Positions 34,862 through 62,150 of a stretch of DNA of 64,000 nucleotides are shown here, piece by piece (position 1 is the first letter of the stretch; each line of letters begins with the position of its first letter). The notes beneath the pieces were generated by a model. It worked only from the letters and a program-made list of their open reading frames with translations, ran no database searches and was not told where the DNA came from. The stretch spans positions 53,198-117,197 of the forward strand of contig JAFSCX010000047.1 in assembly GCA_017436525.1 (NCBI GenBank), written 5' to 3'. This DNA is from Clostridia bacterium. Its GTDB lineage: Bacteria; Bacillota; Clostridia; Oscillospirales; QAKW01. The translations under genes were made by a program, and so were the position numbers.

Positions 34862-35518
34862 TTATTGCTCTTCATTCAAATCAATTTTTGGTAATCGCCA
34901 ATGCAACTTTGCGGCAAGAATTCGAATCAAAACAGTGAAAATAATTACAAAGAAGGTGGCAAAAACCTCAAGACCCGCTCTAAAGCCGACCAGATAATAA
35001 AAGCAACACCCAACAATCGATACAACTGCATAAATATGCTTAGTAAGAACATATGGCTTTTCATTTACCAATACATCGCGGAGGATTCCGCCTCCCACAC
35101 CGGTTATAACGCCCAATGTAATCGCCAAAAGAGCATTGTTTTCATAGGAAGATCTGCAGGCAATCTCCACACCGGTGATAGAAAAAGCTGCAAGGCCCAA
35201 AGCATCGAAGAAAATATTGATCACATCAATTGATTCACTCAATTTTTTGAAATTTCTTCGATGAATATCCGTAATAATAAAGACCAAAACCGAAGTTACT
35301 ACCGCAACGCAAAAAATCAACGGATTAAAAAAGATCTTCGGCGGAGTATTACCCAGCAAAACATCTCTGATGACCCCACCACCGACAGCTGTTATGCATC
35401 CAACAGTTGCAACTCCAAAAAGATCAAGGCTGCAGCGAATTGCCACCAAAGATCCCGAGACGGCAAAAGAGATGGTACCAATCCATTCCATGATTAAAAT
35501 AATAATATCGCTGATCAT
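34862..35518 (-). CDS. TRIC/UPF0126 (YadS-like) cation channel family membrane protein
   Basis: 218 aa with the duplicated signature GGGVIRDVLLG / GGGILRDVLVN. Confidence 0.8.
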   Translation of the reverse strand: MISDIIILIMEWIGTISFAVSGSLVAIRCSLDLFGVATVGCITAVGGGVIRDVLLGNTPPKIFFNPLIFCVAVVTSVLVFIITDIHRRNFKKLSESIDVINIFFDALGLAAFSITGVEIACRSSYENNALLAITLGVITGVGGGILRDVLVNEKPYVLTKHIYAVVSIVGCCFYYLVGFRAGLEVFATFFVIIFTVLIRILAAKLHWRLPKIDLNEEQ

Positions 35519-35613: not shown

Positions 35614-38127
35614 TTATTCTTGATTGCTTTTTGCAGTATCGGCACCATCGCCCACAAGGCCGAGCTCCCTTGCGGCCTGCTCCCGCATTTTATATTTCAG
35701 GATTTTACCTGCAGCATTCATGGGGAAGCTATCAACAAAGGAAATATACTTTGGAACCTTATGGCGCGCCATACTTGCTTTAATAAACTCAGTCATTTCC
35801 TCGGCAGATACACTACCGGGCTCCTTGAGAATAATGCAAGCCATAATTTCTTCGCCGTATTTTTTATCCGGCACGCCAATTACCTGGACATCTTTCACAT
35901 CGGGATGGGTATAAATAAATTCTTCAATCTCTTTGGGATAAATATTTTCACCACCGCGAATGATCATATCCTTCAAGCGGCCGGTAATACGATAATTTCC
36001 GTGCTCATCACGGCAAGCCAAATCCCCGGAATGAAGCCATCCTTCTGCGTCCACTGTATCAGCAGTAGCCTGAGGCATCTTATAGTATCCCTTCATTGTA
36101 TTATAACCTTTAGAGCAAAATTCGCCATTCACACCGCTGGGCAGCTCTGCTCCTGTTTCCGGATCAACGATTTTGCATTGGACATGCGGGAAAGCATAGC
36201 CTACTGTATCGGTTCTTACTTCCAGGCTATCCGTCCATGCAGACATGGTAGAGCCGGGTGCCGATTCTGTCTGACCATAGACGCTTACAATCCCCGTCAT
36301 ATTCATTTCATCCGGCTGGGCCGCCCGCCGCATCAGCTCAGGCGGACATCCCGCTCCTGCCATAATGCCGGTGCGCATATGGGAAAAATCAGTCTTGCGA
36401 TAGTCCGGATGGTTAAACATCGCAATGAACATCGTAGGGACACCGTTAAAGCAGGTGATCTTTTCCTGATTGATGCAAGCCAACGATTGCTTTGCCGAAA
36501 AATAAGGCAACGGACAAATGGTGGCACCATGGGTCATGGAAGAGGTCATGGAAAGCACCATGCCAAAGCAATGGAACATCGGCACTTGAATCATCATGCG
36601 ATCGGCCGTCGATAACCCCATTCGATCGCCGATACACTTCCCATTGTTGACTACATTATAATGAGTCAGCATTACACCCTTCGGAAATCCGGTTGTACCG
36701 GACGTGTATTGCATATTGCAGACATCATCAGGCCGCACCGCAGCCGCCATTTGGGCAACGGTCTCAGAGCTGACCATCGATGCTCTCTCCATCGCTTCCC
36801 CAAAGGTCAGGCAACCGGGGAGCTTAAAGCCAACGGTGATCACATTGCGCAAAAAGGGTAATCTCTTGCAATGCAAGCTCTCCCCCGCCTTGCTTTTTTC
36901 CATTTCCGGGCAAAGCTCTTGGATAATACTCTTATAATTGGAATCAAGGCAGCTTTCGATCATAATCAGAGTATGGGTATCGGACTGCCGCAGCAGATAT
37001 TCTGCCTCATGAATTTTATAAGCAGTATTCACCGTTACCAATACAGCGCCGATCTTGGTAGTGGCCCAAAAAGCGATATACCATTCCGGCACATTGGTAG
37101 CCCATACCGCCACCTTACTGCCCGCTTTAACACCCATAGATACAAGGGCGCGAGCAAAAGTATCTACATCTTTTTGAAATTCTTTATAGGTCCTTGTATA
37201 ATCCAGCGTTGTATACTTAATGGCATATTGATCCGGAAATTCCTCTGCCATGCGATCCAATACTTGAGAGAAGGTCAGATCAATCAGCTCATCCTTTTTC
37301 CATACATATTGGCCGGAACCGTCATGATTGAAATACAAACTTTTTTTCTTTCCCCGCGGATTATCATAGCGATTCATATAATTGATAAAATACGGAAAAA
37401 TTACTTCCATATCCTTGAGATCTTCAATCCAATCGGGCTTCCATTCCAAGGAAATAAAGCCATTATAATTTACAGAAGAAAGGGCAAGCATAAATTCCGC
37501 AATGGGAGCAGTCCCCTCGCCGATCAGATCATATTCGCCCTGATCATCGGAATCCCGCAGATGAACATGGCGCACATAATCGCCCAGGTTTTTGATGGTT
37601 GCATCTGCTTTTTCGCCAAAATCCCGAAAGGGATGATGGACATCCCATAAAACCGCCAGCTCATCGCAAGCAAATTCATCCAATAATTTCCGCAATCTTG
37701 CCGTATCGGCATAAATTCCGCTGGTTTTAATTAAAATGGTTACTTCTTTTTCCCTTGCATCTGCAATCAACGTTTTAAGATTCTCTTTTACAGCATCTTC
37801 ATTCTCTTTTAATGCCACAACTGCTACATAAGGCACGCGAGCATTGCGAGCGACCTCCATCAAAGTTTGCAGATAAGAGATACATTCAGGATCTGATGAA
37901 AGATCATAAGAGGTATCAAAACAAGGGATGGTGAGATTCTTTTCTTTCAACTGCCGCACTGTAGCGGCGGCCTGATATTTATGAAACGGACCGCTGCGAT
38001 CCATCATAGGATCAAATTTCGGCAAATTATAAACTTCGATACCGCCGAATCCCATATCGGCGGCCACAGCCACGGTATCCTCCCAGCTCAGATCGTTCCA
38101 ACCACGGGTGGAAAAGGAGAGATTCAT
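35614..38127 (-). CDS. Fusion protein: N-terminal xylose-isomerase-like TIM barrel (sugar-phosphate isomerase/epimerase family) + C-terminal AMP-forming acyl-CoA ligase
   Basis: 837 aa. Residues 1 to about 270 show the AP-endonuclease-2/TIM-barrel pattern (FGGIEVYN ... HVHLRD ... ISLEWKP). The rest has adenylation motifs YTSGTTGFPKGVMLTH, GYNTMKGYY, WLHSGDL, GRLKDMIIRGGENIYPKEIE and AAGKILK. Its start overlaps the upstream gene's stop by 4 nt. Confidence 0.8.
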   Translation of the reverse strand: MNLSFSTRGWNDLSWEDTVAVAADMGFGGIEVYNLPKFDPMMDRSGPFHKYQAAATVRQLKEKNLTIPCFDTSYDLSSDPECISYLQTLMEVARNARVPYVAVVALKENEDAVKENLKTLIADAREKEVTILIKTSGIYADTARLRKLLDEFACDELAVLWDVHHPFRDFGEKADATIKNLGDYVRHVHLRDSDDQGEYDLIGEGTAPIAEFMLALSSVNYNGFISLEWKPDWIEDLKDMEVIFPYFINYMNRYDNPRGKKKSLYFNHDGSGQYVWKKDELIDLTFSQVLDRMAEEFPDQYAIKYTTLDYTRTYKEFQKDVDTFARALVSMGVKAGSKVAVWATNVPEWYIAFWATTKIGAVLVTVNTAYKIHEAEYLLRQSDTHTLIMIESCLDSNYKSIIQELCPEMEKSKAGESLHCKRLPFLRNVITVGFKLPGCLTFGEAMERASMVSSETVAQMAAAVRPDDVCNMQYTSGTTGFPKGVMLTHYNVVNNGKCIGDRMGLSTADRMMIQVPMFHCFGMVLSMTSSMTHGATICPLPYFSAKQSLACINQEKITCFNGVPTMFIAMFNHPDYRKTDFSHMRTGIMAGAGCPPELMRRAAQPDEMNMTGIVSVYGQTESAPGSTMSAWTDSLEVRTDTVGYAFPHVQCKIVDPETGAELPSGVNGEFCSKGYNTMKGYYKMPQATADTVDAEGWLHSGDLACRDEHGNYRITGRLKDMIIRGGENIYPKEIEEFIYTHPDVKDVQVIGVPDKKYGEEIMACIILKEPGSVSAEEMTEFIKASMARHKVPKYISFVDSFPMNAAGKILKYKMREQAARELGLVGDGADTAKSNQE

Positions 38128-39533
38128 ATTTCCTCCTCCTCATAAACAATTTTGTTCAATGCGCTCAGATATGCATTGATACCGGCGCACACAATATCAG
38201 TGGAAATGCCGCGGCCGGAATATAATTTTCCGCCGCTCCGCAAGCGCACAATCGTTTGCCCCATTGCTTCTCGCCCTTCAGTAACTGCTTTCAACTGAAA
38301 ATCATCCAATTCATAATGACGGCCGGTGATGCTTTCAATGGCGCGGAAAGCAGCATCAATCGATCCATCCCCCAAAGAGACGCCTTCCAAAATCTGCCCC
38401 TCTTTTTTCAACCGCATATGCGCAGTTGCAGCAATGGTATTGCCCGAATTGATTACATAGGTTTCCAATTGATAAGTTGGCGGGACCTGCATAGCTGCAG
38501 AGGCAACAATTGCATCTAATTCGCGGATTCCGACGCGCTCTTTCTTTGCTGCAATTCGGCGGAATGCCTCCACCACCTTAGGTTGATCTTCTTCTGAAAG
38601 ATCATATCCCAGCTGCTCTACCGCCTTCAAAATAGACTCGGCTTGATCATGGAATGTAAGATAAACGCTCTCGTCATCTTGACGAGCACCGCCATCAAAG
38701 GTGGATGATTTTTTATGCTCAGCATCACATATCCATCTGATCTGATCCATTGTGCGGCTCAATTGCGCCACCGAAACATCGGTAGTAATATTCATTGCAG
38801 CGCTGCGAGCATGGATAATCTTAGCGATCTTTGCCAAAGAGGCAGTCCCTTGCGGATAGGCGGCCGCCTTGATTTCCAATGCCCCCTGCTCCACAGCAGC
38901 GATCGCACAAGCGTCGGCCAAAAATAACGCATCATTGCAGCTGACACCAAGCTTCACATCCTTTAAGATCGGGATCGCCTTAAATAAATCGGAAATAAAG
39001 CCCGCAAATTCCTGAGGAAGCATAGTACCTGCCGAATCACATATGGTTACCGTTGCGGCACCGGCTTCCACCGCCGCATGGATTACAGTATTCAAAAATG
39101 CAGGATCACTGCGGGTGGCATCATCGGCCACAAACTCCACATCCTCGCACAAAGCGCTGCAAGCAGCAACATTCTGCCGAATCTCTTCCAGCATCGCTTC
39201 CGGTTTTTTATGATATAAATATTCCATTTGGACCGAAGAAATAGGGGCAAAAACCTGCAACCGAGGATGTTTTGCACTCTTAAGAGCGTTCCATACTGTA
39301 TCTACATTTCCCTGCTTCAGTGCAACCGGCACAGCTACAACGCTGTTTTTTACAGCAGCGGCTATGGATTTTACGCGCAACGCATCAGTTCTTGAATCGC
39401 CTACCCCTTCTAATTCAATCACAGAGACACCAAGATGATCAAGTAGCTTTGCCAGCTCAATCTTCTCGCGGAAAGATAATAATTCTCCTGCCGCTTGCCT
39501 CATGGTTACATCACTGATTCTGATTTGTTTCAT
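38124..39533 (-). CDS. 2-isopropylmalate/homocitrate synthase-family protein with LeuA-dimer C-terminal domain; canonical metal ligands apparently substituted
   Basis: 469 aa with an HMGL-like barrel plus a C-terminal regulatory domain (GDGSIDAAFRAIESITG ... GISTDIVCAGINAYLSALNKI). The N-terminus reads ISDVTMRQAAGE where family members have DTTLRDGEQ. LGVSCNDALFLADA sits where H-x-H-N-D is expected. Confidence 0.75.
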   Translation of the reverse strand: MKQIRISDVTMRQAAGELLSFREKIELAKLLDHLGVSVIELEGVGDSRTDALRVKSIAAAVKNSVVAVPVALKQGNVDTVWNALKSAKHPRLQVFAPISSVQMEYLYHKKPEAMLEEIRQNVAACSALCEDVEFVADDATRSDPAFLNTVIHAAVEAGAATVTICDSAGTMLPQEFAGFISDLFKAIPILKDVKLGVSCNDALFLADACAIAAVEQGALEIKAAAYPQGTASLAKIAKIIHARSAAMNITTDVSVAQLSRTMDQIRWICDAEHKKSSTFDGGARQDDESVYLTFHDQAESILKAVEQLGYDLSEEDQPKVVEAFRRIAAKKERVGIRELDAIVASAAMQVPPTYQLETYVINSGNTIAATAHMRLKKEGQILEGVSLGDGSIDAAFRAIESITGRHYELDDFQLKAVTEGREAMGQTIVRLRSGGKLYSGRGISTDIVCAGINAYLSALNKIVYEEEEI

Positions 39534-39552
39534 ACAATCACCTCACAAGAAA

Positions 39553-39835
39553 TAAAAAAGCCCCGAGGCCAAAAAGCCTCAGGGACGAAAATGCATTTCG
39601 CGGTACCACCCTGTTTATCTTCGCTAAAAGAAGATCACTCGTCGGACTTCCATCAAAGTCCCAGCCCGTAACGGGGGCAACCGTGCTCCATTACAGCCGC
39701 TAATATACGGTTTCACAGAGCCGACTCAGGAAGGAGACTGCACCATCTTTCGCACCGATTCACACCAACCATCGGCTCTCTGAAGCGTCCAAAAGGAGCA
39801 GATTTTCCGTCAACATCTTTGGTTTATGAAAGAAT
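39553..39835 (-). promoter_or_regulatory. T-box leader, specifier read as CUC (Leu), with terminator
   Basis: On the minus strand the promoter is TTGACA-17-TTAAAT. The K-turn is GAU-GUU-GA-C-GGAA / UUCC-U-GA-GUC, followed by an AGAGA box and a distal loop GGTTGGTGTGA. The specifier loop is U-CUC-C (CUC = rc of 39734-39736) and the T-box is AACAGGGTGGTACCGCGAAAT. The terminator is CCCTGAGGC ... GCCTCGGGG + T6 (39553-39584). Confidence 0.75.
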
Positions 39836-39924
39836 TTAACCATAAAGCAAATAATTTGTCAAGAAAAATTTTGGTTTTTTCAAAAAAAGGTTTGACAATT
39901 CAAAAAAAATGTGTTAAAGTTTGA

Positions 39925-40196
39925 AAAAAGTGTTAGAAATGGCTAAGACGAAGACGGCAAGGTTCATCGGATCTTCAGAGAATCGACGGTTGGTGCAAGT
40001 CGATGATCGGTAACCAATTTGCCCATCACTTCCGAGCCGGTGAGCCGAGTGATTATCACCAGGCTTTCCCGTTTGCCCGCGTTAAGGGATAGGGATTATT
40101 GGATCCTGAAGCGATGGTATGATTACCATAATTTGAGTGGTACCGCGGGTATTGATTTTGCTCGTCTCAAGAGTTTTCTTGAGGCGATTTTTTATT
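39925..40196 (+). promoter_or_regulatory. T-box leader, specifier read as AUC (Ile), with terminator
   Basis: The promoter is TTGACA (39892-39897)-17-TAAAGT (39915-39920). The K-turn is GGC-UAA-GA-C-GAAG / CUUC-C-GA-GCC. AGAGA lies at 39977-39981 and the distal loop GGTTGGTGCAA at 39988-39998. The specifier loop is C-AUC-A (AUC at 40025-40027) and the T-box TTGAGTGGTACCGCGGG at about 40133-40149. The terminator is CGTCTCAAG ... CTTGAGGCG + T-run (40163-40196). Confidence 0.8.
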
Positions 40197-40217
40197 TTCT
40201 AAGAAAGGATGACAACA

Positions 40218-42482
40218 ATGAGTAACACGAATCCTACAACCCAATTAATGGACATCGCGGCCCGTATCCGCGATATGCGTGATATTTTGGGCTATAGCAC
40301 ACAAAAGATGGCAGAGCTTACTGAAGTCTCCGAGGGTGATTATCGGACCTATGAGACGGGAACGGTTGATTTGCCCTTCACCTTTTTGCATAAATGTGCC
40401 GCTGCATTCGGCGTAGAAATTACTGTACTCTTAGAAGGGCGCAGCGCCAAGCTTTCCGGCTATACCATTACAAGAAAAGGAAAAGGACTTGTAACTGCAA
40501 GCGAAGATGGCATCACCATTCAGGATATGGCACCCATGTTTCGCAAAAAGCTTGCCACTCCCTATTGGGTTACTTATCAATATTCCGAAGATCTGCAAAA
40601 TAAACCCATCCATACCGTAACCCATGCAGGCCAAGAGTTTGATATGGTCATTAAAGGTACCATGCGGATCCGTGTCGGAGATCATGAAGAAATCCTGCGG
40701 GAGGGAGACAGCATTTTCTATAAATCCTCCACTCCCCATGGTATGATTGCTATCGATGGGCAGGATTGCGTATTTCTCGCCATTATTATGGCAAGCGACA
40801 CAACCGATCAAAAGCTCTTTATCGGCTCCGGCAAAAAGGCTGAACACGAAAATCTCCTTTGCCATAAATATATCAAAACGGAAGAAGACGATAACGGAGC
40901 GCTCAAGGCTATTTCCTTTGAAGATGCCGATACCTATAATTTTGCTTTCGATACAGTAGATGCAATTGCTCGGCGTGAGCCCGAAAAGCTTGCAATGCTC
41001 CATGTGGCCAACGATATGACCGAGCGCCGTTTCACCTTCAAGGATATCAAAGATGCATCCTCTCAAAGCGCCAACTATTTCAAGTCCCTCGGCATCAAAC
41101 GCGGCGATCGTGTCATGCTGGTGCTCAAGCGGCATTATCAATTCTGGTTTGCAATTCTCGGCCTACATAAACTCGGTGCCATCGCAATTCCCGCCACCAA
41201 TCAGCTGGTTGAAAAAGATTTCAGTTACCGTTTCCAATCTGCAGGAGTCAGTGCGGTCCTTTGCACTGCCGATGGGGATACCGCCCATCAAATTGAATTG
41301 GCAGAGCAGCAAACAGGCATTACCCTCAACAAGATCCTTGTCGGCGATGATCGAGAGGGATGGCATAATTATAATAAGGAATATCCCCTTTTCTCCCGCC
41401 GCTATGTGCGCGAGGAAAATGCGCCTTGCGGCGATGATCCCATGCTGATGTTCTTCACCTCCGGTACCACCGGCTATCCCAAGATTGCAGTCCATAGTTA
41501 TAAATATGCTTTAGGCCATTATGTAACCGCAAAATATTGGCACATGGCCGAAAAGGATGGCTTGCACTTTACGATCTCCGAAACCGGCTGGGGAAAAGCA
41601 CTTTGGGGCAAGCTTTATGGCCAATGGCTCTGCGAAGGCGCCGTATTCACTTATGATTTCGATCGTTTTGATGCAGAGAAAATCCTACCCATGTTTGCAA
41701 AATACAATATCACCACCTTCTGCGCTCCCCCCACTATGTATCGCATGCTGATCAAGCAGGATCTCAGCCGCTTTGATCTATCCTCTATCCATCATGCAAC
41801 CACTGCCGGTGAAGCGCTGAACCCCGAAGTATTCTATCAATTTGAAAAAGCCACCGGCCTGCGCATCGCAGAAGGCTTTGGTCAGACAGAGATGACCTTG
41901 GGCATCGCAAATCTGGTAGGCACCATGCTCAAGCCCGGCGCTATGGGTAAGCCTGTGCCCGGTTATGGAATTGATCTTGTTGATCCCGATGGTAATCCCG
42001 TAGCCGATGGCGACAACGGCGAGATCGTTATCCGCACCGAGCCGAAGCCCACTTGCGGTATTTTCCTGGGATATTACAACGAACCGGAAAAGACTGCTGC
42101 TGTATGGCATGATGGTCTTTACCATACCGGTGATCTTGCGTGGCGCGATGAGGACGGCTACTATTGGTATGTAGGCCGTGCAGATGATGTCATCAAATCT
42201 TCCGGCTACCGCATCGGGCCCTTCGAAATCGAAAGCACCATCATGGAGCTTCCCTATGTCTTGGAATGTGGCGTTTCTGCCGCTCCGGATGAAGTCCGCG
42301 GGCAGGTCGTTAAGGCAAGCATTGTCTTGGTAAAAGGCACCGAACCCACCGAGCAGCTCAAAAAAGATATCCAAAACTATGTCAAAACGCGAACTGCTCC
42401 CTATAAATATCCCCGCATTGTAGAGTTCCGCGATGAATTACCCAAAACCATCAGTGGAAAGATTATGCGTAACAAATTATAA
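40218..42482 (+). CDS. HTH(XRE)-cupin-acyl-CoA synthetase (AMP-forming, medium/short-chain type) fusion, paralog 1
   Basis: About 754 aa. The N-terminal HTH_3 reads RDILGYSTQKMAELTEVSEGDYRTYETG and the cupin reads HAGQEFDMVIKGTMRIRVGDHEEILREGDSIFYKSSTPHGM. Adenylation motifs are MFFTSGTTGYPK, DTGW-like ETGWGKALWG, YHTGDLAWRDEDGYYWYVGRADDVIKSSGYRIGPFEIE and ISGKIMR. An alternative ATG lies at 40209. Confidence 0.85.
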   Translation: MSNTNPTTQLMDIAARIRDMRDILGYSTQKMAELTEVSEGDYRTYETGTVDLPFTFLHKCAAAFGVEITVLLEGRSAKLSGYTITRKGKGLVTASEDGITIQDMAPMFRKKLATPYWVTYQYSEDLQNKPIHTVTHAGQEFDMVIKGTMRIRVGDHEEILREGDSIFYKSSTPHGMIAIDGQDCVFLAIIMASDTTDQKLFIGSGKKAEHENLLCHKYIKTEEDDNGALKAISFEDADTYNFAFDTVDAIARREPEKLAMLHVANDMTERRFTFKDIKDASSQSANYFKSLGIKRGDRVMLVLKRHYQFWFAILGLHKLGAIAIPATNQLVEKDFSYRFQSAGVSAVLCTADGDTAHQIELAEQQTGITLNKILVGDDREGWHNYNKEYPLFSRRYVREENAPCGDDPMLMFFTSGTTGYPKIAVHSYKYALGHYVTAKYWHMAEKDGLHFTISETGWGKALWGKLYGQWLCEGAVFTYDFDRFDAEKILPMFAKYNITTFCAPPTMYRMLIKQDLSRFDLSSIHHATTAGEALNPEVFYQFEKATGLRIAEGFGQTEMTLGIANLVGTMLKPGAMGKPVPGYGIDLVDPDGNPVADGDNGEIVIRTEPKPTCGIFLGYYNEPEKTAAVWHDGLYHTGDLAWRDEDGYYWYVGRADDVIKSSGYRIGPFEIESTIMELPYVLECGVSAAPDEVRGQVVKASIVLVKGTEPTEQLKKDIQNYVKTRTAPYKYPRIVEFRDELPKTISGKIMRNKL

Positions 42483-42514
42483 TCCGATCCCTGATAATCA
42501 ATTTGAGGTGTATT

Positions 42515-44803
42515 ATGGAACAACAAATAACAGGAATGACTTATAAAATCAGAGAAATGGCGGCGCGCATTAAAGAATTGCGTGAAATCACAGGCCTGAC
42601 CGTTGAGGAAATGGCCGAGCGCACCGGCATCAGTGTAGAAGAATATATCCAAAGCGAAGCGGGCAACCGCAATCTCAGCGTATCGTTCTTATACCACTGC
42701 ACCCTCTCCTTCGGCGTTGATATGGGCGACCTTTTGGAAGGCCGCAGCCCCAAGCTGCGCTCCTATGCCCTGACCAGAAAAGGGCAAGGCCAGCGTATTG
42801 AAGAAGCGCACCATATGGTAGGCTATAACCTTGCGGCAGATTTCCGCAACCGTATCGCCCTCCCCTTGTATATGGAGCTCAACTACCGCCCCGGCGCTGA
42901 ATACGAAGATATTGAGCTGACTACCCATGAAGGGCAGGAATGTGATATTGTGATCCGCGGCCATATGCGGATCCAGATCGGCGGGCATACCGAAATTTTG
43001 CACCCCGGCGATACCATTTATTATGATTCTTCAACCCCTCACGGTATGATTGCTGTAGATGGAGAAGATTGCGCTTTTTATGCCATTGTACTTCGGAATC
43101 TTGCCGCCCGCGCGGAAGAGCAGGCGGCCGCCGAAGCTAAGCCTATTCCCAAAGCGCAGCAGGATGAAGGGAAGGAACGGATCTATCGTAATTTCATCCT
43201 CCCCACCGAGCAGGATGGTAAGCTGACCGCTATTACATTCAAAAATGAAGAAAAATTCAATTTTGCCTACGATATTGTAGACGCTCTGGCAAAACGCAAG
43301 CCGGAAAAGTTGGCAATGATTCACCTGCGTGAAAGCGGAGAAGAGCACCGTTTCACCTTCAACGATATAAAAAAAGAATCTGCCCGAGCCGCCAATTACT
43401 TCAAATCTTTGGGCATTCAAAAAGGCGACCGTGTCATGCTGGTGCTCAAGCGGCACTATCAATTCTGGTTTTCAATCTTGGGCTTGCATAAATTGGGAGC
43501 AGTAGTCATTCCCGCTACCAATCAATTGCAAGAAAAAGATTTCACCTATCGATTTGAAGCAGGCAATGTAAAAGCCATTGTCTGCACAGCAGACGGTGAT
43601 GTTGCAGCGGCAGTAGATGCGGCCGCAGAAAAAACGCCTCATCTCACCACCAAAATTATGGTAGGTGGTTCTCGGGAAGGCTGGCATAATTTCAATGAAG
43701 AATATACCATGTATAGCAGCAGATTCGCCCGCACAGAGGATACTCCCTGCGGATCGGATCCCATGCTGATGTTCTTCACCTCCGGCACCTCCGGATATCC
43801 CAAATTGGCAGCACACAACTATAAATATCCTTTGGGCCATTTCATCACCGCCAAGTATTGGCATCAGGTGAATCCCGATGGCCTGCACCTTACCATTTCC
43901 GATACAGGATGGGCCAAATCCCTTTGGGGCAAGCTCTATGGCCAATGGCTGTGCGAGGCGCCCATCTTTGTATATGATTTCGATCGATTTGACGCAGAGA
44001 AGATTCTGCCCCTCTTCAAGAAATACGGCATCACCACTTTCTGCGCACCGCCCACCATGTATCGTATGCTGATCAAGCAAGATCTCAGCCGCTTTGATCT
44101 TTCATCCATTGAGCACGCGTCCATCGCCGGTGAAGCCCTCAACCCTGAGGTATTCCGCCAATTCAAAAAAGCAACCGGCTTAGAGATTATGGAAGGCTTC
44201 GGCCAATCCGAAAGCACCTTGATTATCGGTAATCTCAGAGGATCCAGCCATAAGGTTGGCTCGATGGGTAAGCCTGTCCCCTTATATGACATTCATCTTT
44301 TGGATGCAGAAGGCAATGAAGTGGCAACCGGTGAAAACGGTGAGGTTTGCATCAATATCAAAGATGGTCTCCCCTGCGGCCTCAGCTATGGCTATGAAGG
44401 CAACGCCGAAACCACCGCCGAGGTATGGAAGGATGGCTGGTATCATACCGGTGATCTTGCGTGGAAAGATGAGGACGGTTTCTTCTGGTATGTGGGCCGC
44501 GTAGATGATGTCATTAAATCTTCCGGCTACCGTATCGGGCCCTTTGAAATTGAAAATGTTATTATGGAATTGCCCTATGTCTTGGAATGCGGCGTTTCTG
44601 CCGCTCCCGATGAAGTCCGCGGGCAGGTCGTAAAAGCCAGCATTGTGTTGGTTAAGAATTTCAAGGGTACCGAAGAATTGAAGAAGGAAATTCAAAATTA
44701 CGTAAAATCCCGCACCGCTCCCTATAAATATCCTCGCATTGTGGAGTTTAGAGAGAGTCTGCCGAAGACTACCAGCGGTAAAATTATTCGCAAGCAACTG
44801 TAA
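42515..44803 (+). CDS. HTH(XRE)-cupin-acyl-CoA synthetase fusion, paralog 2
   Basis: About 762 aa with the same three-module layout as paralog 1. I estimate about 65-70% aa identity by eye. The ATG at 42515 follows GAGGTG. Confidence 0.85.
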   Translation: MEQQITGMTYKIREMAARIKELREITGLTVEEMAERTGISVEEYIQSEAGNRNLSVSFLYHCTLSFGVDMGDLLEGRSPKLRSYALTRKGQGQRIEEAHHMVGYNLAADFRNRIALPLYMELNYRPGAEYEDIELTTHEGQECDIVIRGHMRIQIGGHTEILHPGDTIYYDSSTPHGMIAVDGEDCAFYAIVLRNLAARAEEQAAAEAKPIPKAQQDEGKERIYRNFILPTEQDGKLTAITFKNEEKFNFAYDIVDALAKRKPEKLAMIHLRESGEEHRFTFNDIKKESARAANYFKSLGIQKGDRVMLVLKRHYQFWFSILGLHKLGAVVIPATNQLQEKDFTYRFEAGNVKAIVCTADGDVAAAVDAAAEKTPHLTTKIMVGGSREGWHNFNEEYTMYSSRFARTEDTPCGSDPMLMFFTSGTSGYPKLAAHNYKYPLGHFITAKYWHQVNPDGLHLTISDTGWAKSLWGKLYGQWLCEAPIFVYDFDRFDAEKILPLFKKYGITTFCAPPTMYRMLIKQDLSRFDLSSIEHASIAGEALNPEVFRQFKKATGLEIMEGFGQSESTLIIGNLRGSSHKVGSMGKPVPLYDIHLLDAEGNEVATGENGEVCINIKDGLPCGLSYGYEGNAETTAEVWKDGWYHTGDLAWKDEDGFFWYVGRVDDVIKSSGYRIGPFEIENVIMELPYVLECGVSAAPDEVRGQVVKASIVLVKNFKGTEELKKEIQNYVKSRTAPYKYPRIVEFRESLPKTTSGKIIRKQL

Positions 44804-44814
44804 AAGGTGATATT

Positions 44815-45477
44815 ATGGAGCATAAACGTCTAACCCTCTTTGCCGGCCATTACGGAAGCGGAAAAACCAATATAGCGGTCAACTATGCCTTGATGCTGGC
44901 AAATGAGGGAAAGAAGGTTTGCATTGCAGACTTGGATATTGTAAACCCCTATTTTCGCACAAAGGATAGTGCAGACGAATTGGAAAAAGCAGGTGTGGCA
45001 TTAGTTTCGCCGCAATTTGCCAATTCAAATGTTGATCTGCCGGCTCTTCCGGCCGAAGCCTATCGATTGGTAACAGATAAAGCAACCTATGGTATAATGG
45101 ATATCGGCGGAGATGATCGGGGCGCCTATGCCTTGGGTCGATATGTCCCTTCCATTATTGAGGAGAATTGCTATCGCTTAGTATATGTAGCCAACTGTTA
45201 TCGCCCTCTGACCCGTACCCCCGAGGAGGCGTTGGAGGTCATGAGAGAAATCGAAGCAGCATGCGGATTGCAGTTTACCGATATCATCAATAATTCCAAT
45301 CTCGGAGAAGAAACCACAGCCGAAACGCTGCTGGCATCCCTTGATTATATCGATCAGCTTTGCAAAATCAGCGGGCTTCCCCTCTTTGCCCACACCGCAA
45401 TTCCGCCGGTTGCTGCGGAATTATCAAAAGAATTAACCCCTGTAATTTCTCTGCATCTGCAGAAGAAAATATTTTGA
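44815..45477 (+). CDS. P-loop NTPase (MinD/ParA/CooC-like SIMIBI class), function unknown
   Basis: 220 aa with a deviant Walker A, GHYGSGKTNIAVNYAL, and CIADLDIVNPYFRT. Confidence 0.65.
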   Translation: MEHKRLTLFAGHYGSGKTNIAVNYALMLANEGKKVCIADLDIVNPYFRTKDSADELEKAGVALVSPQFANSNVDLPALPAEAYRLVTDKATYGIMDIGGDDRGAYALGRYVPSIIEENCYRLVYVANCYRPLTRTPEEALEVMREIEAACGLQFTDIINNSNLGEETTAETLLASLDYIDQLCKISGLPLFAHTAIPPVAAELSKELTPVISLHLQKKIF

Positions 45478-45534
45478 TCCACCACCTAATAGGTCGTATG
45501 CCCGACCCAGTGAAAACCCAAGGAGGAATCTTAA

Positions 45535-45741
45535 ATGGCAAAAGTAACATTCCGAACCGATTGGTGCAAAGGCTGTGGCCTGTGCGTCGATGCCTGCCCC
45601 AAAAAATGCTTGGCAATCGATTCCGGCACCATCAACAAAAAGGGATATTCTCCCGCTGTAATGACCCAACCGGATAATTGCATCGGTTGCGCTTTTTGCG
45701 CCACCATGTGCCCCGATTGTATCATCACGGTCGAACGATAA
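45535..45741 (+). CDS. 2-oxoacid:ferredoxin oxidoreductase delta subunit (2x[4Fe-4S] ferredoxin)
   Basis: 68 aa with two CxxCxxCxxxCP motifs (CKGCGLCVDACP, CIGCAFCATMCP). AAGGAGG RBS upstream. Confidence 0.85.
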   Translation: MAKVTFRTDWCKGCGLCVDACPKKCLAIDSGTINKKGYSPAVMTQPDNCIGCAFCATMCPDCIITVER

Positions 45742-45753
45742 AGGAGGCGCAAC

Positions 45754-46815
45754 ATGGCAGAAAGAGTATTAATGAAGGGCAACGAAGCCATTGCGGAAGC
45801 TGCTATTCGCGCAGGCTGCCGCCATTACTTCGGCTACCCCATCACCCCGCAAACGGAAATTGCTGCATATATGGCAAAGAAAATGCCGAAAATCGGCGGT
45901 GTTTTCCTTCAGGCTGAAAGTGAGATCGCATCCATTAATATGGTATATGGCGCGGCGGCAGCAGGTGTAAGAGTAATGACCTCCTCCTCCAGCCCGGGTA
46001 TTTCCCTTAAAGCAGAAGGATTGAGCTATATTGCAGGATCTGATGTGCCCGCATTGGTTGTCAATGTTCAGCGCGGCGGCCCCGGCTTAGGCGGTATTCA
46101 GCCCTCTCAATCCGATTATTTCCAAGCCACAAAAGGCGGCGGCCATGGCGATTATAAAATGATCGTTTTGGCGCCCGCTTCCGTGCAGGAAATGGCAAGC
46201 CTCACCATTAAAGGTTTTAATTTGGCAGATAAATATCTGATGACCTCCATGATTCTGGCAGATGGTACAATCGGCCAAATGATGGAGCCCATCACCTTTG
46301 AAGATGCAGAAATCGAGAATTACGATAAGCCTTGGGCGCTGACCGGAACCAACTGCGAAAGAGCCCATAATATTGTAAATTCCCTGTATCTGAAGCCGGA
46401 TGAGCTTGAGATGAAAAACATCGAGCGCTTTGAGCGCTATAAGCTGATCGAAGAGCGGGAAGCAATGTGGGAAGAATATATGATGGAAGATGCTGAATTT
46501 TGCGTAGTCGCCTTTGGTATCGCCGCCCGTGTAGCTAAAAACGCGGTTGTAGCCGCCCGTAATGAAGGCATTAAGGTTGGCCTTATTCGCCCCATTACCC
46601 TATGGCCTTTCCCCAAAGATGCTTTACTGGCTGCTGCCGATCAGGTTAAGGGCTTTATCTCTGTAGAGCTGAATATGGGTCAGATGATCGAAGATATCCG
46701 CTTGTATACCCAATCCAAAAAACCGGTTGGCCTTTGCAACCGTTGCGGCGGTATGATTCCCGAGCCGGATGAAATTTTAGAGAGCATTCGCAATGCTCAG
46801 AAAGGAGTGTTCTGA
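45754..46815 (+). CDS. 2-oxoacid:ferredoxin oxidoreductase alpha subunit (VorB/KorA-type)
   Basis: 353 aa: MKGNEAIAEAAIRAGCRHYFGYPITPQTEI ... Confidence 0.85.
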   Translation: MAERVLMKGNEAIAEAAIRAGCRHYFGYPITPQTEIAAYMAKKMPKIGGVFLQAESEIASINMVYGAAAAGVRVMTSSSSPGISLKAEGLSYIAGSDVPALVVNVQRGGPGLGGIQPSQSDYFQATKGGGHGDYKMIVLAPASVQEMASLTIKGFNLADKYLMTSMILADGTIGQMMEPITFEDAEIENYDKPWALTGTNCERAHNIVNSLYLKPDELEMKNIERFERYKLIEEREAMWEEYMMEDAEFCVVAFGIAARVAKNAVVAARNEGIKVGLIRPITLWPFPKDALLAAADQVKGFISVELNMGQMIEDIRLYTQSKKPVGLCNRCGGMIPEPDEILESIRNAQKGVF

Positions 46816-46817
46816 TC

Positions 46818-47579
46818 ATGGCAGTCGTATTTAAGAAACCCAACGCTTTGGCAGACATTCCTCTGCACTATTGCCCCGGTTGCCCCCACGGCATTATTCA
46901 CCGCTTAGTTGCGGAAGTAATGGATGAGCTGGGAATCGAAGGGAAAGCCATCGGTGTAGCCCCTGTGGGCTGCGCAGTAATGGCATACGATTATTTTGCA
47001 TGCGATATGATCGAAGCTGCCCATGGCAGAGCGCCTGCTGTGGCAACCGGTATCAAGCGCTCTCGGCCGGAAAATATTGTCTTTACTTATCAAGGGGATG
47101 GCGATCTGGCCTCTATTGGTATGGCCGAGACCGTACATGCCGCAGCGCGCAACGAGAACATTACCGTTATCTTTGTCAACAATGCAATCTATGGTATGAC
47201 CGGCGGTCAGATGGCTCCTACCAGCCTCCCCGGTCAGGTAACCCAGACCTCTCCCTATGGTCGGGATGTAAACCATTGCGGATGGCCCATCAAGGTCTCC
47301 GAAATGCTTTCTACCCTCGACGGACCGGAATATATTGCACGCGTTGCTGCAAACAATGTTAAAAATATTAACCAAGCAAAGAAAGCCATCAAAAAGGCCT
47401 TCCAAAACCAAATTGATGGAAAAGGCTTCTCCCTTGTAGAGGTCGTCTCCGCTTGCCCCACAAACTGGGGTATGACGCCTCAAAAAGCGCTGGAATGGGT
47501 AGAAAGCGATATGCTCCCCTACTATCCGATCGGCGTTTATAAGGACAGAACTGCTGCAAAGGAGGCTGAGCAAAAATGA
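46818..47579 (+). CDS. 2-oxoacid:ferredoxin oxidoreductase beta subunit (TPP-binding)
   Basis: 253 aa with HYCPGCPHGIIHR and a GDGD-type TPP motif (YQGDGDLASIG). Confidence 0.85.
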   Translation: MAVVFKKPNALADIPLHYCPGCPHGIIHRLVAEVMDELGIEGKAIGVAPVGCAVMAYDYFACDMIEAAHGRAPAVATGIKRSRPENIVFTYQGDGDLASIGMAETVHAAARNENITVIFVNNAIYGMTGGQMAPTSLPGQVTQTSPYGRDVNHCGWPIKVSEMLSTLDGPEYIARVAANNVKNINQAKKAIKKAFQNQIDGKGFSLVEVVSACPTNWGMTPQKALEWVESDMLPYYPIGVYKDRTAAKEAEQK

Positions 47580-48112
47580 AGACAACTCAAATTCTGATTG
47601 CCGGCTTCGGCGGGCAGGGAATCTTATTTGCCGGCAAATTTTTGGCATATAAAGGATTGACAGAAGAATTGCAGGTATCTTGGCTTCCTTCCTATGGCCC
47701 CGAGATGCGCGGCGGCACCGCAAACTGCAATGTAATTCTATCCGACACTCCCGTCGGCAGCCCGATCATTACCCAACCGGATGTCCTGATCGCCATGAAT
47801 CTTCCTTCCCTGCAAAAATATGTAGATACCGTCGTATCGGGTGGGCAGATTTATGTAGACAGCGCCCTGATTGATGAAAAGGTAGCCCGCGAAGATGTAG
47901 AAGTTTTTTATATCCCCGCCACTCAGATCGCTAAAAGCGAAGGAATTGCAACGCTGGCCAATATGATTATGATCGGCCATCTCTTGGAAAATAATCCTCA
48001 GCTTTCTTTTGATGGCACAGAAGAAGTTGTAAAAAAATTAGTCCCCCCCGCAAAGGCAGCGCTGGTTGAATTAAATCTTAAAGCGCTGACTCTCGGAAAA
48101 GAATACAAATAA
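47576..48112 (+). CDS. 2-oxoacid:ferredoxin oxidoreductase gamma subunit
   Basis: 178 aa with ILIAGFGGQGILFAGKFLA and GPEMRGG. It overlaps the beta-subunit stop by 4 nt. Confidence 0.85.
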   Translation: MKTTQILIAGFGGQGILFAGKFLAYKGLTEELQVSWLPSYGPEMRGGTANCNVILSDTPVGSPIITQPDVLIAMNLPSLQKYVDTVVSGGQIYVDSALIDEKVAREDVEVFYIPATQIAKSEGIATLANMIMIGHLLENNPQLSFDGTEEVVKKLVPPAKAALVELNLKALTLGKEYK

Positions 48113-48159
48113 TTGTAAATTATGCCCGTCGAGGCAAGAATATTTTGGAGGTAAATACT

Positions 48160-49191
48160 ATGAATGCAATGACAGAAATGACCAACTATCGCCATGAAAA
48201 GGTGCTCTTTGTCAACAACGAGAAAGCCGGCCTTAAGGCAATTATCGCTGTCCACAACACCAACCTTGGCCCCGCCATCGGCGGTTGCCGCCTTTTCCCT
48301 TATGAATCTTATGACGCAGCTCTTTTCGATGTATTGCGTCTTTCTCGCGGTATGTCCCATAAAAATGCTGTTGCCGGCCTGCCCCATGGCGGCGGTAAGG
48401 GTGTAATCATTGCTGATCCTTCTCAAAAGACTGAAGCAATGTTTGAAGCCTTTGCTGAGGCAGTAGAGAACCTGGGTGGCCAATATATCACCGCCGAGGA
48501 TGTAAATACCACCTGCGATGATGCTATGGTAATGCTTCGCAAGACCAAGCATCTCTGCGGCCTGCCCATGAATAGCGGCGATCCCTCCCCCTTCACCGCA
48601 AGAGGTGTATGGCAGGGCATCAAGGCCACTGCAAAGGTTGCTTTAGGCAGCGATAATCTGGATGGCCTTACCATCGCTGTGCAGGGTCTTGGTAAAGTTG
48701 GTTATGATCTTTGCCGTCTGCTCCATGAAAGCGGCGCAAAGTTGATTGTTGCCAATCGGAGCAATAAGGAAATGCTGGCGAAAGCGCAGGCGGAATTTGG
48801 CGCTAAGGTTGTGGATACCAAAGACATTATGGCTCAGGAATGTGATATCTTCTCCCCCAATGCCATGGGCGCTATTCTGAACCCCAATACCATCCCCACC
48901 CTGCGCTGCAAGGCGGTTGCCGGTGGTGCCAACAATCAGATTCTGGATGATGCTTCCGGCCTTGCACTGAAGGCACGCGGCATCTTCTACGCTCCTGATT
49001 TTGTCATCAATGGTGGTGGTGTTATCAATGCTGCTGCCGAGGTAGACGGCCCCTACAACAAAGAGGTTGTTCTTGAGAAGGTAGATAATATTTATAATAC
49101 CATCGAGCATATCCTCACTGAGTCCAAGAAGACCGGTGAGCCTGAGGGTGTTATTGCAACTCGCTATGCAGAGTCTATCATCTATCGTTAA
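48160..49191 (+). CDS. Leucine/valine/isoleucine (Glu/Leu/Phe/Val family) dehydrogenase
   Basis: About 343 aa with the catalytic-Lys region LPHGGGKGVIIADP and the Rossmann motif VQGLGKVGYDL. The ATG at 48160 follows GGAGGT; the track start at 48145 is a TTG. Confidence 0.85.
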   Translation: MNAMTEMTNYRHEKVLFVNNEKAGLKAIIAVHNTNLGPAIGGCRLFPYESYDAALFDVLRLSRGMSHKNAVAGLPHGGGKGVIIADPSQKTEAMFEAFAEAVENLGGQYITAEDVNTTCDDAMVMLRKTKHLCGLPMNSGDPSPFTARGVWQGIKATAKVALGSDNLDGLTIAVQGLGKVGYDLCRLLHESGAKLIVANRSNKEMLAKAQAEFGAKVVDTKDIMAQECDIFSPNAMGAILNPNTIPTLRCKAVAGGANNQILDDASGLALKARGIFYAPDFVINGGGVINAAAEVDGPYNKEVVLEKVDNIYNTIEHILTESKKTGEPEGVIATRYAESIIYR

Positions 49192-60166: not shown

Positions 60167-60643
60167 TTACATTGTTATGTCCTCAAATTTACAGGGTATT
60201 ACGAGGGGAAGATCCTGCGGATCAAGAAGGATCTGCGCACCGATGCGGCCGCCGCTGATGATAATTTCATCAAAAAGAATAGCCGTCTCATCAAATACTG
60301 CGGGAAATTGCTTTTTCAGCCCAATGGCGGTGCAGCCCCCTCTCACATAGCCGGTAAGAGAAAATAGTTCCTTTACGGGGATTAATTCCACCGCCTTCTC
60401 CCCTACTGCTTTTGCTGCCTTTTTAAGATCCAGCTCTTCCGCAACAGGAAGAGCAAATACATAATGCGCCCCGCTTTTCCCCGCTGCAATCAGCGATTTG
60501 AAGGAGCGCTCTTTTTCTTGCCCCAACTGCTCAGCGATATGAACACCATCTATGAATTCATCACATTCATAAAGATTCATTCGAAAAGGAATCTTCTTTT
60601 GCTCCAGAATTCGCATGGCATTGGTTTTTACTTCCTTGCCCAT
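60167..60643 (-). CDS. ybaK: Cys-tRNA(Pro)/Cys-tRNA(Cys) deacylase YbaK/EbsC family
   Basis: 158 aa: KTNAMRILEQKKIPF ... KSLIAAGKSG ... GGCTAIGLKK. Its ATG shares one base (60643) with the tyrS stop. Confidence 0.8.
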   Translation of the reverse strand: MGKEVKTNAMRILEQKKIPFRMNLYECDEFIDGVHIAEQLGQEKERSFKSLIAAGKSGAHYVFALPVAEELDLKKAAKAVGEKAVELIPVKELFSLTGYVRGGCTAIGLKKQFPAVFDETAILFDEIIISGGRIGAQILLDPQDLPLVIPCKFEDITM

Positions 60644-61863
60644 TATTTTGCAGAAATTTTGATAAACTTTTTCTTGCCGCGCTTTAATACAAAGCTATTT
60701 TCTACCTGCTTCTTGGTGAAGGTCTTTTTCACATCCAAAACCTTCTCCCCTTCTACAGTTACACCGCCCTGCTCTACAGCACGACGCCCTTCGGAACGGG
60801 AAGGTACAAGCCCGCTTTTAACCAGCAAGGTGATTACATCGACTGCTCCGTCGGTATAATCGCCTTCTTCCACTACATAGGTAGGCATATTCTCCGCATT
60901 TCCGGCGCCAAAGAGCGCGCGAGCGCTTTCCTCTGCCTTGCGCGCTTCTTCCTCGCCATGCACAAGAGCTGTAAGCTCATAAGCAAGGATTTCTTTTGCG
61001 CGATTAAGCTGGCTTCCTTCCCATGTATCCATCTCATTGATCTGCTCCAGCGGCAGGAAAGTCAGCATGCGGATGCACTTTAATACATCGGCATCATTTA
61101 CATTTCTCCAATATTGATAGAAATCAAAGGGAGAGGTTTTATTGGGATCCAGCCATACTGCGCCGCCGGCAGTTTTACCCATCTTCTTTCCTTCGCTGGT
61201 CAAAAGAAGGGTGATGGTCATCGCGTGAGCATCTTTGCCCAGCTTTCTGCGAATCAGCTCTGTACCACCCAGCATGTTGCTCCATTGATCATTGCCGCCA
61301 AATTGCATATTGCAGCCATATTTTTGGAAAAGATAATAGAAATCATAAGATTGCATGATCATATAGTTGAATTCCAAGAAGGAAAGGCCTTTTTCCATTC
61401 TCTGCTTATAACACTCTGCACGAAGCATATTATTTACAGAGAAACAAGCGCCGACCTCTCTCAATACATCTACATAATTGAGATCCATCAACCAATCGGC
61501 GTTATTGACCATCTGCGCTTTTCCTTCACCGAATTCAATAAAGCGCTCCATTTGCTTCTTAAAGCAATCGCAATTATGCTGAATGGTCTCTTTGGTCATC
61601 ATAGAGCGCATATCGGTACGGCCGGAAGGATCGCCGATCATCGCGGTACCGCCGCCGATCAGAGCGATAGGGCGGTTGCCTGCCATCTGCAGCCGTTTCA
61701 TCAAGCAAAGCGCCATAAAATGGCCAACATGCAGGCTATCGGCAGTGGGATCAAAGCCAATATAGAAGGTGGCTTTCCCATTATTTACAAGCTCTCTGAT
61801 TTCCTCTTCATTGGTTACCTGAGCAATCAGCCCACGGGCAACAAGTTCGTCATAAATCTGCAT
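60643..61863 (-). CDS. tyrS: Tyrosine--tRNA ligase
   Basis: About 406 aa from the ATG at 61863 ([24 protein letters not shown]). It has the HIGH motif LHVGHF, the KMSKS-type KMGKT and a C-terminal S4 domain. The track ORF start at 61962 lies inside the T-box leader. Confidence 0.95.
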
Positions 61864-61869
61864 GATTCT

Positions 61870-62150
61870 CATCCTTTCAATATAAAAGCCCTCTGCTCCC
61901 CAATCGGGAGCAGAGGGCAAAAATTCTTTTGCGGTACCACCTCTGCGGCAAATACTTCTCACAAAGTATTCCTCAGCGCGTTCCTTATCAACGCCGCCCT
62001 GCTAACGGAAGGCTTCCGCTGCCGCCTACTCTTCCTTCGGGGCAGATGCTCCGGGATGTATTCGCAAAGCACCTTCTTCTCCGCCTTACACCAGCCGGCG
62101 GCTCTCTTTGCAAGAAAAATGCTGCTACTTGTTCCCTTCTCAGCTTGAAT
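61870..62150 (-). promoter_or_regulatory. T-box leader upstream of tyrS, specifier UAC (Tyr)
   Basis: On the minus strand the promoter is TTGACA-17-TAAAAT, followed by an AGAGA box and a distal loop GGCTGGTGTAA. The specifier context is GAA-UAC-A-UCCC and the T-box is GAGGTGGTACCGCAAAAG. Confidence 0.8.

Follow-up and report, generated by a model that had tools for sequence, protein, structure and literature searches.

What becomes of a leucine biosynthetic enzyme whose active site is gone and whose regulatory domain has stayed? This question is raised by a gene in a 64,000-nucleotide stretch of DNA (the window) from a Clostridia bacterium of the order Oscillospirales (assembly GCA_017436525.1, contig JAFSCX010000047.1, positions 53,198 to 117,197), which encodes a relative of 2-isopropylmalate synthase (IPMS; LeuA), here called the LeuA-like protein. 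A preliminary description of the window had proposed that all three metal ligands of this protein are replaced, that its LeuA-dimer regulatory domain is intact, and that it may be a paralogue that senses a ligand without catalysis, or else an enzyme whose chemistry has changed. Since the 1960s it has been known that isovalerate, 2-methylbutyrate and isobutyrate serve anaerobes of the rumen and gut as starting material for leucine, isoleucine and valine. Our full-text search of the literature found no description of genes for the activation of these branched acids or for its control, and none of an IPMS/LeuA pseudoenzyme or of a LeuA-like/ligase module. In this report, we suggest, with a probability that we put at about 0.55, that the LeuA-like protein is a non-catalytic, leucine-sensing partner of an isovalerate-CoA ligase fusion encoded directly downstream. 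We read it as most likely a leucine sensor for a salvage pathway fed by an acid of gut fermentation, because its gene always directly precedes a ligase induced by leucine starvation.

Results

The LeuA fold without its catalytic elements

Two Pfam domains make up the protein, HMGL-like (PF00682, residues 4-260, 2.4e-33) and LeuA_dimer (PF08502, residues 337-462, 2e-29), the latter being the C-terminal allosteric domain that a LeuA should have. Every NCBIfam LeuA equivalog model matches the protein, yet at 230-305 bits with cut-offs of 532-748 (305 bits against 532 for NF002086, 272 against 598.7 for TIGR00973), so that it falls outside the LeuA equivalogs. The AlphaFold2 model (pLDDT 86.7, with low confidence at residues 273-289) contains a barrel that superposes on the LeuA structures 3ewb, 3rmj and 3eeg at a root-mean-square deviation of 1.7-1.9 Å, and the comparison with 3ewb (TM 0.93, 1.8 Å) identifies it as a (beta/alpha)8 DRE-TIM fold.

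The catalytic elements of this fold are missing. When HMMER aligns the protein with Listeria LeuA (3ewb), DTTLRDGEQ pairs with DVTMR---Q, and MAFFT places Q13 of the LeuA-like protein in the metal-Asp column; the Asp is gone in either alignment. The preliminary description was therefore right to put SDVTMRQAAGE at this place and to note the lost Asp, whereas its Asp-to-Gln replacement, which the MAFFT placement would still allow, is better described as a deletion of Asp-Gly-Glu. HCHDD of 3ewb pairs with SCNDA, the two His positions being Ser and Asn, which agrees with the earlier remark that GVSCNDA stands without His where H-x-H-N-D is expected. All three ligands are thus absent by HMMER and MAFFT, as had been claimed, and the losses extend further. 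INGIGERAGN pairs with a gapped AYPQGT, with ERAG deleted; the catalytic Glu of AEDATR is Asp, at a position that varies across the family described below; the Thr of PDTVG is also variable in the family; and 27 residues of accessory subdomain I (FAHESGIHQHGVL..., the HESGIHQ region) are deleted in the protein and the family alike. Arg12, which had been reported as kept, is present in this protein but is R, K or C across the family. Catalysis by IPMS needs subdomain I (PMC9860122), and the Arg and the Glu, together with that subdomain, are listed as required for activity in passages of PMC9860122 and in a mutant table in PMC10464499.

An alignment of 107 family representatives (31-62% identity) with five true LeuAs contains no conserved ligand column, and the structural model agrees in placing non-ligand residues at the ligand positions of a LeuA barrel. 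The Asp column holds E, Q, N, K, S or D, the first His column E, Q, S, C or R, and the second His column mostly S. Since no ligand column is conserved in these representatives, ligand loss is a family trait and not a chance event; the loss itself is shared, and the replacing residues vary. A column comparison that sets 21 family members beside 21 true LeuAs encoded in genomes of this order points the same way: no variation occurs among the true LeuAs at the seven catalytic columns (R, D and E of RDGEQ, E of AEDATR, T of PDTVG and the two His), which carry 2.1-3.2 bits of entropy in the family, where the barrel mean is 1.74. As far as sequence can show, the LeuA-like protein cannot catalyse the IPMS reaction; its fold appears to be retained and its chemistry gone.

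A single family under purifying selection, with constraint on the regulatory domain

An exhaustive profile-free search recovered about 120 cluster representatives of the LeuA-like family, 453-497 aa long and reaching down to 31% identity, whereas true LeuAs (502-516 aa) all score under about 230 bits. Metagenome-assembled genomes (MAGs) of Clostridia and Oscillospiraceae are the source of more than 100 closer clusters, which, where the source gives a name, are called "hypothetical protein" and, in one case, 2-isopropylmalate synthase. In a tree with a CimA-like protein as outgroup, all family members group together (SH-aLRT 99), joined by a long stem at a position among or next to the true LeuAs of this order; the family therefore arose once, from a LeuA.

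Comparison with a 93%-identical relative gave ratios of non-synonymous to synonymous change (dN/dS) of 0.10 for the barrel, 0.08 for the linker and 0.00 for the regulatory domain, the last with 0 amino-acid changes in 133 codons at a pS of 0.18; in more distant pairs, dN of the barrel is 5-7 times that of the regulatory domain. All 46 genomes of the order with this gene have it as an intact open reading frame. Because purifying selection is combined with a wide family, decay of the gene is excluded as far as sequence goes, as the preliminary description had supposed, and the loss of catalytic residues under retained purifying selection is what a pseudoenzyme acting as a regulatory subunit should display.

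The distribution of constraint over the protein is also unusual. Mean identity within the family is 0.40 for the barrel, 0.35 for the linker and 0.67 for the regulatory domain, against 0.62, 0.64 and 0.47 in true LeuAs, and the ratio of regulatory-domain to barrel identity (family median 1.68, minimum 1.18; true LeuAs 0.75, maximum 1.00) does not overlap between the two groups. The regulatory domains of the family and of true LeuAs are on average 39% identical to each other. Residues 316-466 hold most of the family-specific conserved positions; those in the barrel are F21, P97, E104, H108, K110 and K222, the last being Glu in all LeuAs. Constraint has thus moved to the sensor domain, the pattern between domains being inverted relative to true LeuAs, and the domain that had been called intact is in fact the best-conserved part of the family. 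Its two invariant motifs, GDGP and G-x-G-x-S-T-D, each lie at the N-terminus of one of the two helices in the beta-beta-beta-alpha repeats. A pair of such helix N-termini holds the carboxylate of leucine in M. tuberculosis LeuA (PMC11057210), and a LeuA_dimer domain can function as a stand-alone amino-acid sensor (PMC13381585). A PDB sequence search with residues 290-469 matched only the regulatory domain of Leptospira citramalate synthase, at E = 0.017. Taken on conservation, the main selected function of the protein is predicted to reside in this leucine-binding regulatory domain. Between the two alternatives of the preliminary description, non-catalytic ligand sensing is therefore favoured over altered chemistry, because few columns of the barrel vary as much as those of the former active site and the regulatory domain is hyper-conserved.

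Invariable linkage to a barrel-ligase fusion

The partner gene directly downstream encodes a fusion that matches Pfam AP_endonuc_2, AMP-binding and AMP-binding_C, and NF009233 at 679 bits, below the cut-off of that model. The LeuA-like gene directly precedes such a fusion in 21 of 21 loci (our own and 20 from different genera), and the same arrangement was found in all three close relatives looked up. All partnered ligases fall together in one clade of the ligase tree (SH-aLRT 100), and the topology of this clade agrees with that of the LeuA-like tree: locus L046 is basal in both, and both contain the groups own locus/L035/L036, L049/L052/L053/L054 and L040/L045. Stable genetic linkage to, and co-evolution with, a catalytic partner are again features of pseudoenzyme regulatory subunits. 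A search for fused LeuA-like/ligase proteins (822-2345 aa) found none at E <= 1e-30, which is weak evidence, and co-folding of the LeuA-like protein with the N-terminal barrel of the ligase alone scored 0.25 and 0.22, where the mark is 0.32. The substrate of the ligase is not readable from homology, since its solved relatives are generic ANL ligases; a fold search with its N-terminal barrel returned only generic sugar isomerase/epimerase neighbours, at a TM of about 0.7.

Ligases of the same kind also occur in other settings. At locus L055 (G091:C35:6500-20500), a true leuA, a CimA-like gene, a Leu T-box and an unpartnered barrel-ligase fusion follow one another on one strand, an order that may resemble the ancestral arrangement behind the pair of dead LeuA and ligase. 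At least seven sampled genomes (for example G038, G064, G085, G101, G104, G152 and G171) carry an unpartnered ligase and lack both a true LeuA and its dead counterpart; of those named, five show only a CimA-like protein of about 530-560 aa, and G064 and G104 are without a listed match.

T-box control

The gene is preceded by a leader that scores above the Rfam gathering score, carries a Leu specifier and ends in a terminator, as in Leu T-box regulons (Table 1), which bears out the earlier statement that it stands first in a regulated operon. A T-box lies directly upstream of the LeuA-like gene in 15 of the 21 loci, with the specifier CUC in 13 and CUG in two, both of them Leu codons, and a CUC T-box precedes the unpartnered ligases in 13 of 13 leaders read. 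Fusions of a helix-turn-helix (HTH) domain, a cupin domain and a ligase have T-boxes of their own elsewhere (loci L036, L038, L041-L044, L048, L049 and L051): one kind has the specifier AUC (Ile) in 5 of 5 cases and the other GUA or GUC (Val) in 7 of 7. By the Leu, Ile and Val specifiers of the respective leaders, the three ligases each answer to the tRNA of one branched-chain amino acid. At our locus, where the two HTH-cupin ligases occupy 40209-44803 (plus strand), the second starts 20 nt after the first and has no leader of its own, so that both are here under the Ile T-box.

Pathway genes and genome context

Together with the divergent operon, whose amino-acid dehydrogenase is an ELFV dehydrogenase, the partner ligase would complete a route: ligase, VOR-type oxidoreductase and amino-acid dehydrogenase are predicted to provide all steps from a branched short-chain acid to an amino acid. 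In the genome itself (1.75 Mb, 99% complete), nothing passes the cut-offs for LeuA, leuB or leuC (weak leuB-like and leuC-like matches below them lie in a gene cluster on contig C54), and ilvC and ilvD are absent. The LeuA-like protein is therefore without the leuB and leuCD that a LeuA works with in the same genome. Among 201 genomes of the order, a true LeuA was found in 0 of the 46 that carry the LeuA-like family and in 68 of the 155 that do not (Fisher's test, p = 4e-10, a value that is overstated because related genomes are not independent). The two states co-occur within at least 10 taxonomic families.

The sole other HMGL-like gene of the genome (C54:4649-9564) adjoins the weak leuC-like and leuB-like matches; our guess is that these are an aconitase and an isocitrate dehydrogenase in a Re-citrate-synthase-type route to glutamate, and not a leucine pathway. 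Within the Ile-T-box operon, a gene for a ParA/NUBPL-like P-loop NTPase (44815-45477, plus strand) stands between the ligases and the ferredoxin and VOR genes, and its product may deliver Fe-S clusters to the oxidoreductase. A gene for a Gly_transporter-family (PF03458) membrane protein (34862-35518, minus strand) lies 95 nt downstream of the partner ligase. The ligase of the close relative L095 has in this place a peptidase M20 gene, which runs on the other strand, and the Gly_transporter-family gene therefore probably lies outside the module. At 60167-62150 (minus strand), a third T-box leader of the window (97.9 bits) precedes genes for a tyrosyl-tRNA synthetase and a YbaK-type aminoacyl-tRNA editing domain and looks like an ordinary T-box regulon. 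The window matched gut-metagenome DNA sequencing runs only, with no RNA run among those listed.

Table 1. Coordinates of the LeuA-like/ligase locus, in positions of the window
Feature	Position	Strand	Remarks
Partner gene, 837-aa fusion	35614-38127	minus	Xylose-isomerase-like TIM barrel and AMP-forming acyl-CoA ligase
N-terminal barrel of the ligase, about residues 1-270	37318-38127	minus	Pfam AP_endonuc_2
LeuA-like coding sequence, 469 aa	38124-39533	minus	Stop-free translation; stop overlaps ligase start by 4 nt
Regulatory domain (LeuA_dimer)	38127-38525	minus	Motifs GDGP (388-391) and G-x-G-x-S-T-D (440-446) invariant
Shortened accessory/linker region, residues 266-336	38526-38738	minus	Without 27 residues of subdomain I (HESGIHQ region)
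HMGL-like/DRE-TIM barrel, residues 1-265	38739-39533	minus	Metal ligands and catalytic residues lost
GVSCNDA, residues 196-202	38928-38948	minus	In the place of S-H-C-H-D-D; both metal His absent
SDVTMRQAAGE, residues 7-17	39483-39515	minus	In the place of DTTLRDGEQ; core DVTMRQAAG, residues 8-16, at 39486-39512
T-box terminator hairpin	39550-39584	minus	9-bp GC-rich stem and U run, then ribosome-binding site (GAGG) and ATG at 39533; read from sequence
T-box leader	39578-39822	minus	Rfam RF00230, 114.5 bits (gathering score 93); specifier CUC (Leu); discriminator-pairing UGGU
Promoter-like TTGACA-17 nt-TTAAAT	39834-39862	minus	Upstream of leader; read from sequence, putative
Divergent T-box leader	39936-40172	plus	Specifier AUC (Ile)
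Context operon	40209-49191	plus	Two HTH-cupin-acyl-CoA ligase fusions, P-loop NTPase, ferredoxin, VOR-type alpha/beta/gamma, Leu/Val-type amino-acid dehydrogenase

Discussion

We propose that the LeuA-like protein acts in a leucine salvage pathway as follows. Uncharged tRNA-Leu would act on the T-box, which would then permit transcription of the LeuA-like gene and the ligase, and the two proteins would probably be translated as a coupled pair across their ATGA overlap. The ligase would form the CoA ester of a branched short-chain acid, isovalerate being the likeliest, the VOR-type oxidoreductase encoded next door would reductively carboxylate this ester to 2-oxoisocaproate, and the adjoining amino-acid dehydrogenase would aminate 2-oxoisocaproate to leucine. 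The dead LeuA would bind leucine in the fashion of LeuA, through its conserved regulatory-domain dimer, and relay the signal to the ligase. Isovalerate as the substrate and the sign of the leucine effect on the ligase are both points that we infer.

Several observations weigh against this proposal. An unpartnered barrel-ligase fusion is present in about 30 of the 201 sampled genomes; the fusion works without a partner in many genomes, and the partner is thus not required for ligase activity. The N-terminal barrel of the ligase has a metal-type signature (E31, E134, D162, H164, H165, H189, D192 and E228), and this E-E-D-H-H-H-D-E pattern is intact in 20 of 20 unpartnered and 0 of 21 partnered ligases, a loss that a simple sensor model does not predict. 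Our own ligase has K134, so that its signature is degenerate, and mean identity of the barrel is 0.40 in the partnered clade against 0.57 in unpartnered ligases. The signature stays intact even in unpartnered genomes without a true LeuA, and its decay therefore tracks the presence of the dead LeuA and not the loss of the de novo pathway. Purifying selection also continues to act on the barrel of the LeuA-like protein (omega about 0.1), whose family-specific conserved residues include the polar E104, H108, K110 and K222; the barrel thus does something, and this could be ligand binding or residual chemistry. Finally, physical contact of the LeuA-like protein with the ligase is presumed, and leucine is presumed as its ligand from ancestry and the T-box only; LeuA_dimer domains can also be Ile-specific, as in CimA.

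A wider evolutionary scenario is possible, and we offer it tentatively, as doubtful in its entirety. After de novo leucine synthesis was lost, the LeuA sensor may have been kept, relocated ahead of the salvage ligase and deprived of its catalysis, and it may then have taken over the role of the metal-dependent N-terminal barrel of the ligase. Two dead TIM barrels and a leucine-binding domain would make up an allosteric module of a sort not described before, by which the first step from isovalerate to leucine comes under end-product control.

The decay of the ligase-barrel signature in the presence of the partner keeps alive two other explanations. In one, which we consider rather unlikely, the LeuA-like protein is a structural or activating subunit of the ligase that senses no leucine; it might stabilise the ligase or replace the function of its decayed N-terminal barrel, and its regulatory domain would serve only for dimerisation or docking. 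This would fit the strict synteny, the shared diversification of protein and ligase, and a ligase-barrel signature that is lost only in the partnered clade, and in LeuA the regulatory domain does dimerise, as its Pfam name indicates. However, docking alone would not need the invariant motifs at the glycine-rich helix N-termini, which form the amino-acid pocket of LeuA, and 0 non-synonymous changes in 133 codons suggest more than a dimer interface. The other explanation, to our minds unlikely, is that the barrel performs a new, metal-independent chemistry on a salvage intermediate (for example isovaleryl-CoA or 2-oxoisocaproate), and that it may be taking over a catalytic job of the N-terminal barrel of the ligase. 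A dN/dS of 0.10 for the barrel, its family-specific conserved F21, P97, E104, H108, K110 and K222, and a ligase active site that decays only alongside the LeuA-like protein are all in keeping with such a role; but the positions that line the LeuA active site are all hypervariable, with no new conserved replacement, subdomain I, which caps the active site, is missing, the barrel evolves at about 5-7 times the rate of the regulatory domain, and the encoded salvage route needs no further step.

It is very unlikely that the protein senses leucine on behalf of another target, such as the VOR-type oxidoreductase, the amino-acid dehydrogenase, a transporter or the HTH-cupin ligases. A conserved sensor domain, and the position of the remaining pathway genes in the divergent operon, would suit such a target; yet the barrel-ligase fusion alone is invariably adjacent (21 of 21), HTH-cupin ligases being nearby in 13 of 20 loci, and it is with the barrel-ligase fusion that the protein has co-diversified. 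The notion of an ordinary IPMS with shifted ligands, or of a decaying pseudogene, is scarcely tenable and was rejected on the sequence evidence, for in spite of the overall architecture and fold of LeuA, HMMER, MAFFT and the structural model all put non-ligand residues at the ligand positions, neither leuB nor leuC is there to use the product, and purifying selection in a wide family speaks against a pseudogene.

If the leucine-sensing partnership with the ligase is correct, it would be a clear bacterial case of an allosteric domain that outlived its pathway and was re-used to control the replacement. The locus and its relatives offer candidate genes for all three branched-acid ligases, each with the matching T-box (Leu, Ile or Val), and, for the leucine branch, a candidate feedback sensor derived from a dead biosynthetic enzyme. 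The case would also expose an annotation trap, for the names given in MAGs are "hypothetical protein" or "2-isopropylmalate synthase", and a LeuA call would wrongly suggest leucine prototrophy. A natural leucine-binding module might, moreover, serve biosensor design.

Comparison with known systems

The closest relative of the family is short-form LeuA (TIGR00973/NF002086; 3ewb, 3rmj and 3eeg, with full-length M. tuberculosis LeuA as 1sr9/3fig), with which it shares the DRE-TIM barrel, the accessory region, LeuA_dimer and the motifs of the regulatory pocket, and it branches from within the LeuAs of its own bacterial order. It differs from LeuA in the absence of the metal ligands, of a conserved catalytic Arg, Glu and Thr, of GERAGN and of subdomain I, in scores of about half the curated cut-offs, in its confinement to genomes without a true LeuA, and in a fixed gene partner that is an acyl-CoA ligase and not leuBCD. 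CimA (3f6g/3f6h) has the same LeuA_dimer regulatory domain, which in isolation still recognises an amino acid (PMC13381585) and which is the one solved regulatory domain that the sequence search retrieved. CimA is an active enzyme that senses isoleucine, however, and the family does not include the CimA-like proteins of this order. The control region is likewise familiar, a canonical leader with CUC specifier and terminator as in Leu T-box regulons (leuS, ilv-leu operons and branched-chain amino-acid transporters); what it controls here is a pseudoenzyme and an acyl-CoA ligase, and not a synthetase, a de novo enzyme or a transporter. For MbcS, a branched short-chain acyl-CoA synthetase of S. 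aureus, PMC13584741 describes AMP-forming activation of branched short-chain carboxylic acids. This provides a precedent for what the partner ligase is proposed to do; MbcS differs in feeding the synthesis of branched-chain fatty acids for the membrane. To our knowledge, MbcS has no N-terminal barrel, no LeuA-like partner and no T-box.

In concept, the nearest parallel is HisZ, an inactive paralogue of histidyl-tRNA synthetase that serves as the regulatory subunit of HisG(S). The accounts of HisZ in PMC9734150 and PMC10795190 describe it as recognising the amino acid of its pathway and as making the first committed enzyme, HisG(S), sensitive to the end product. Fold and pathway are unrelated, and the HisZ-HisG complex and histidine binding are experimentally established, whereas their counterparts for the LeuA-like protein are proposed here. 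The likeness lies in the recruitment of a dead paralogue as a separate subunit. End-product sensing at the first committed step from isovalerate to leucine, analogous to that by HisZ, would be the most economical mechanism, and we hold it to be somewhat better than evenly probable; if it is true, the LeuA-like protein would be a LeuA-derived addition to the short list of pseudoenzyme regulators such as HisZ.

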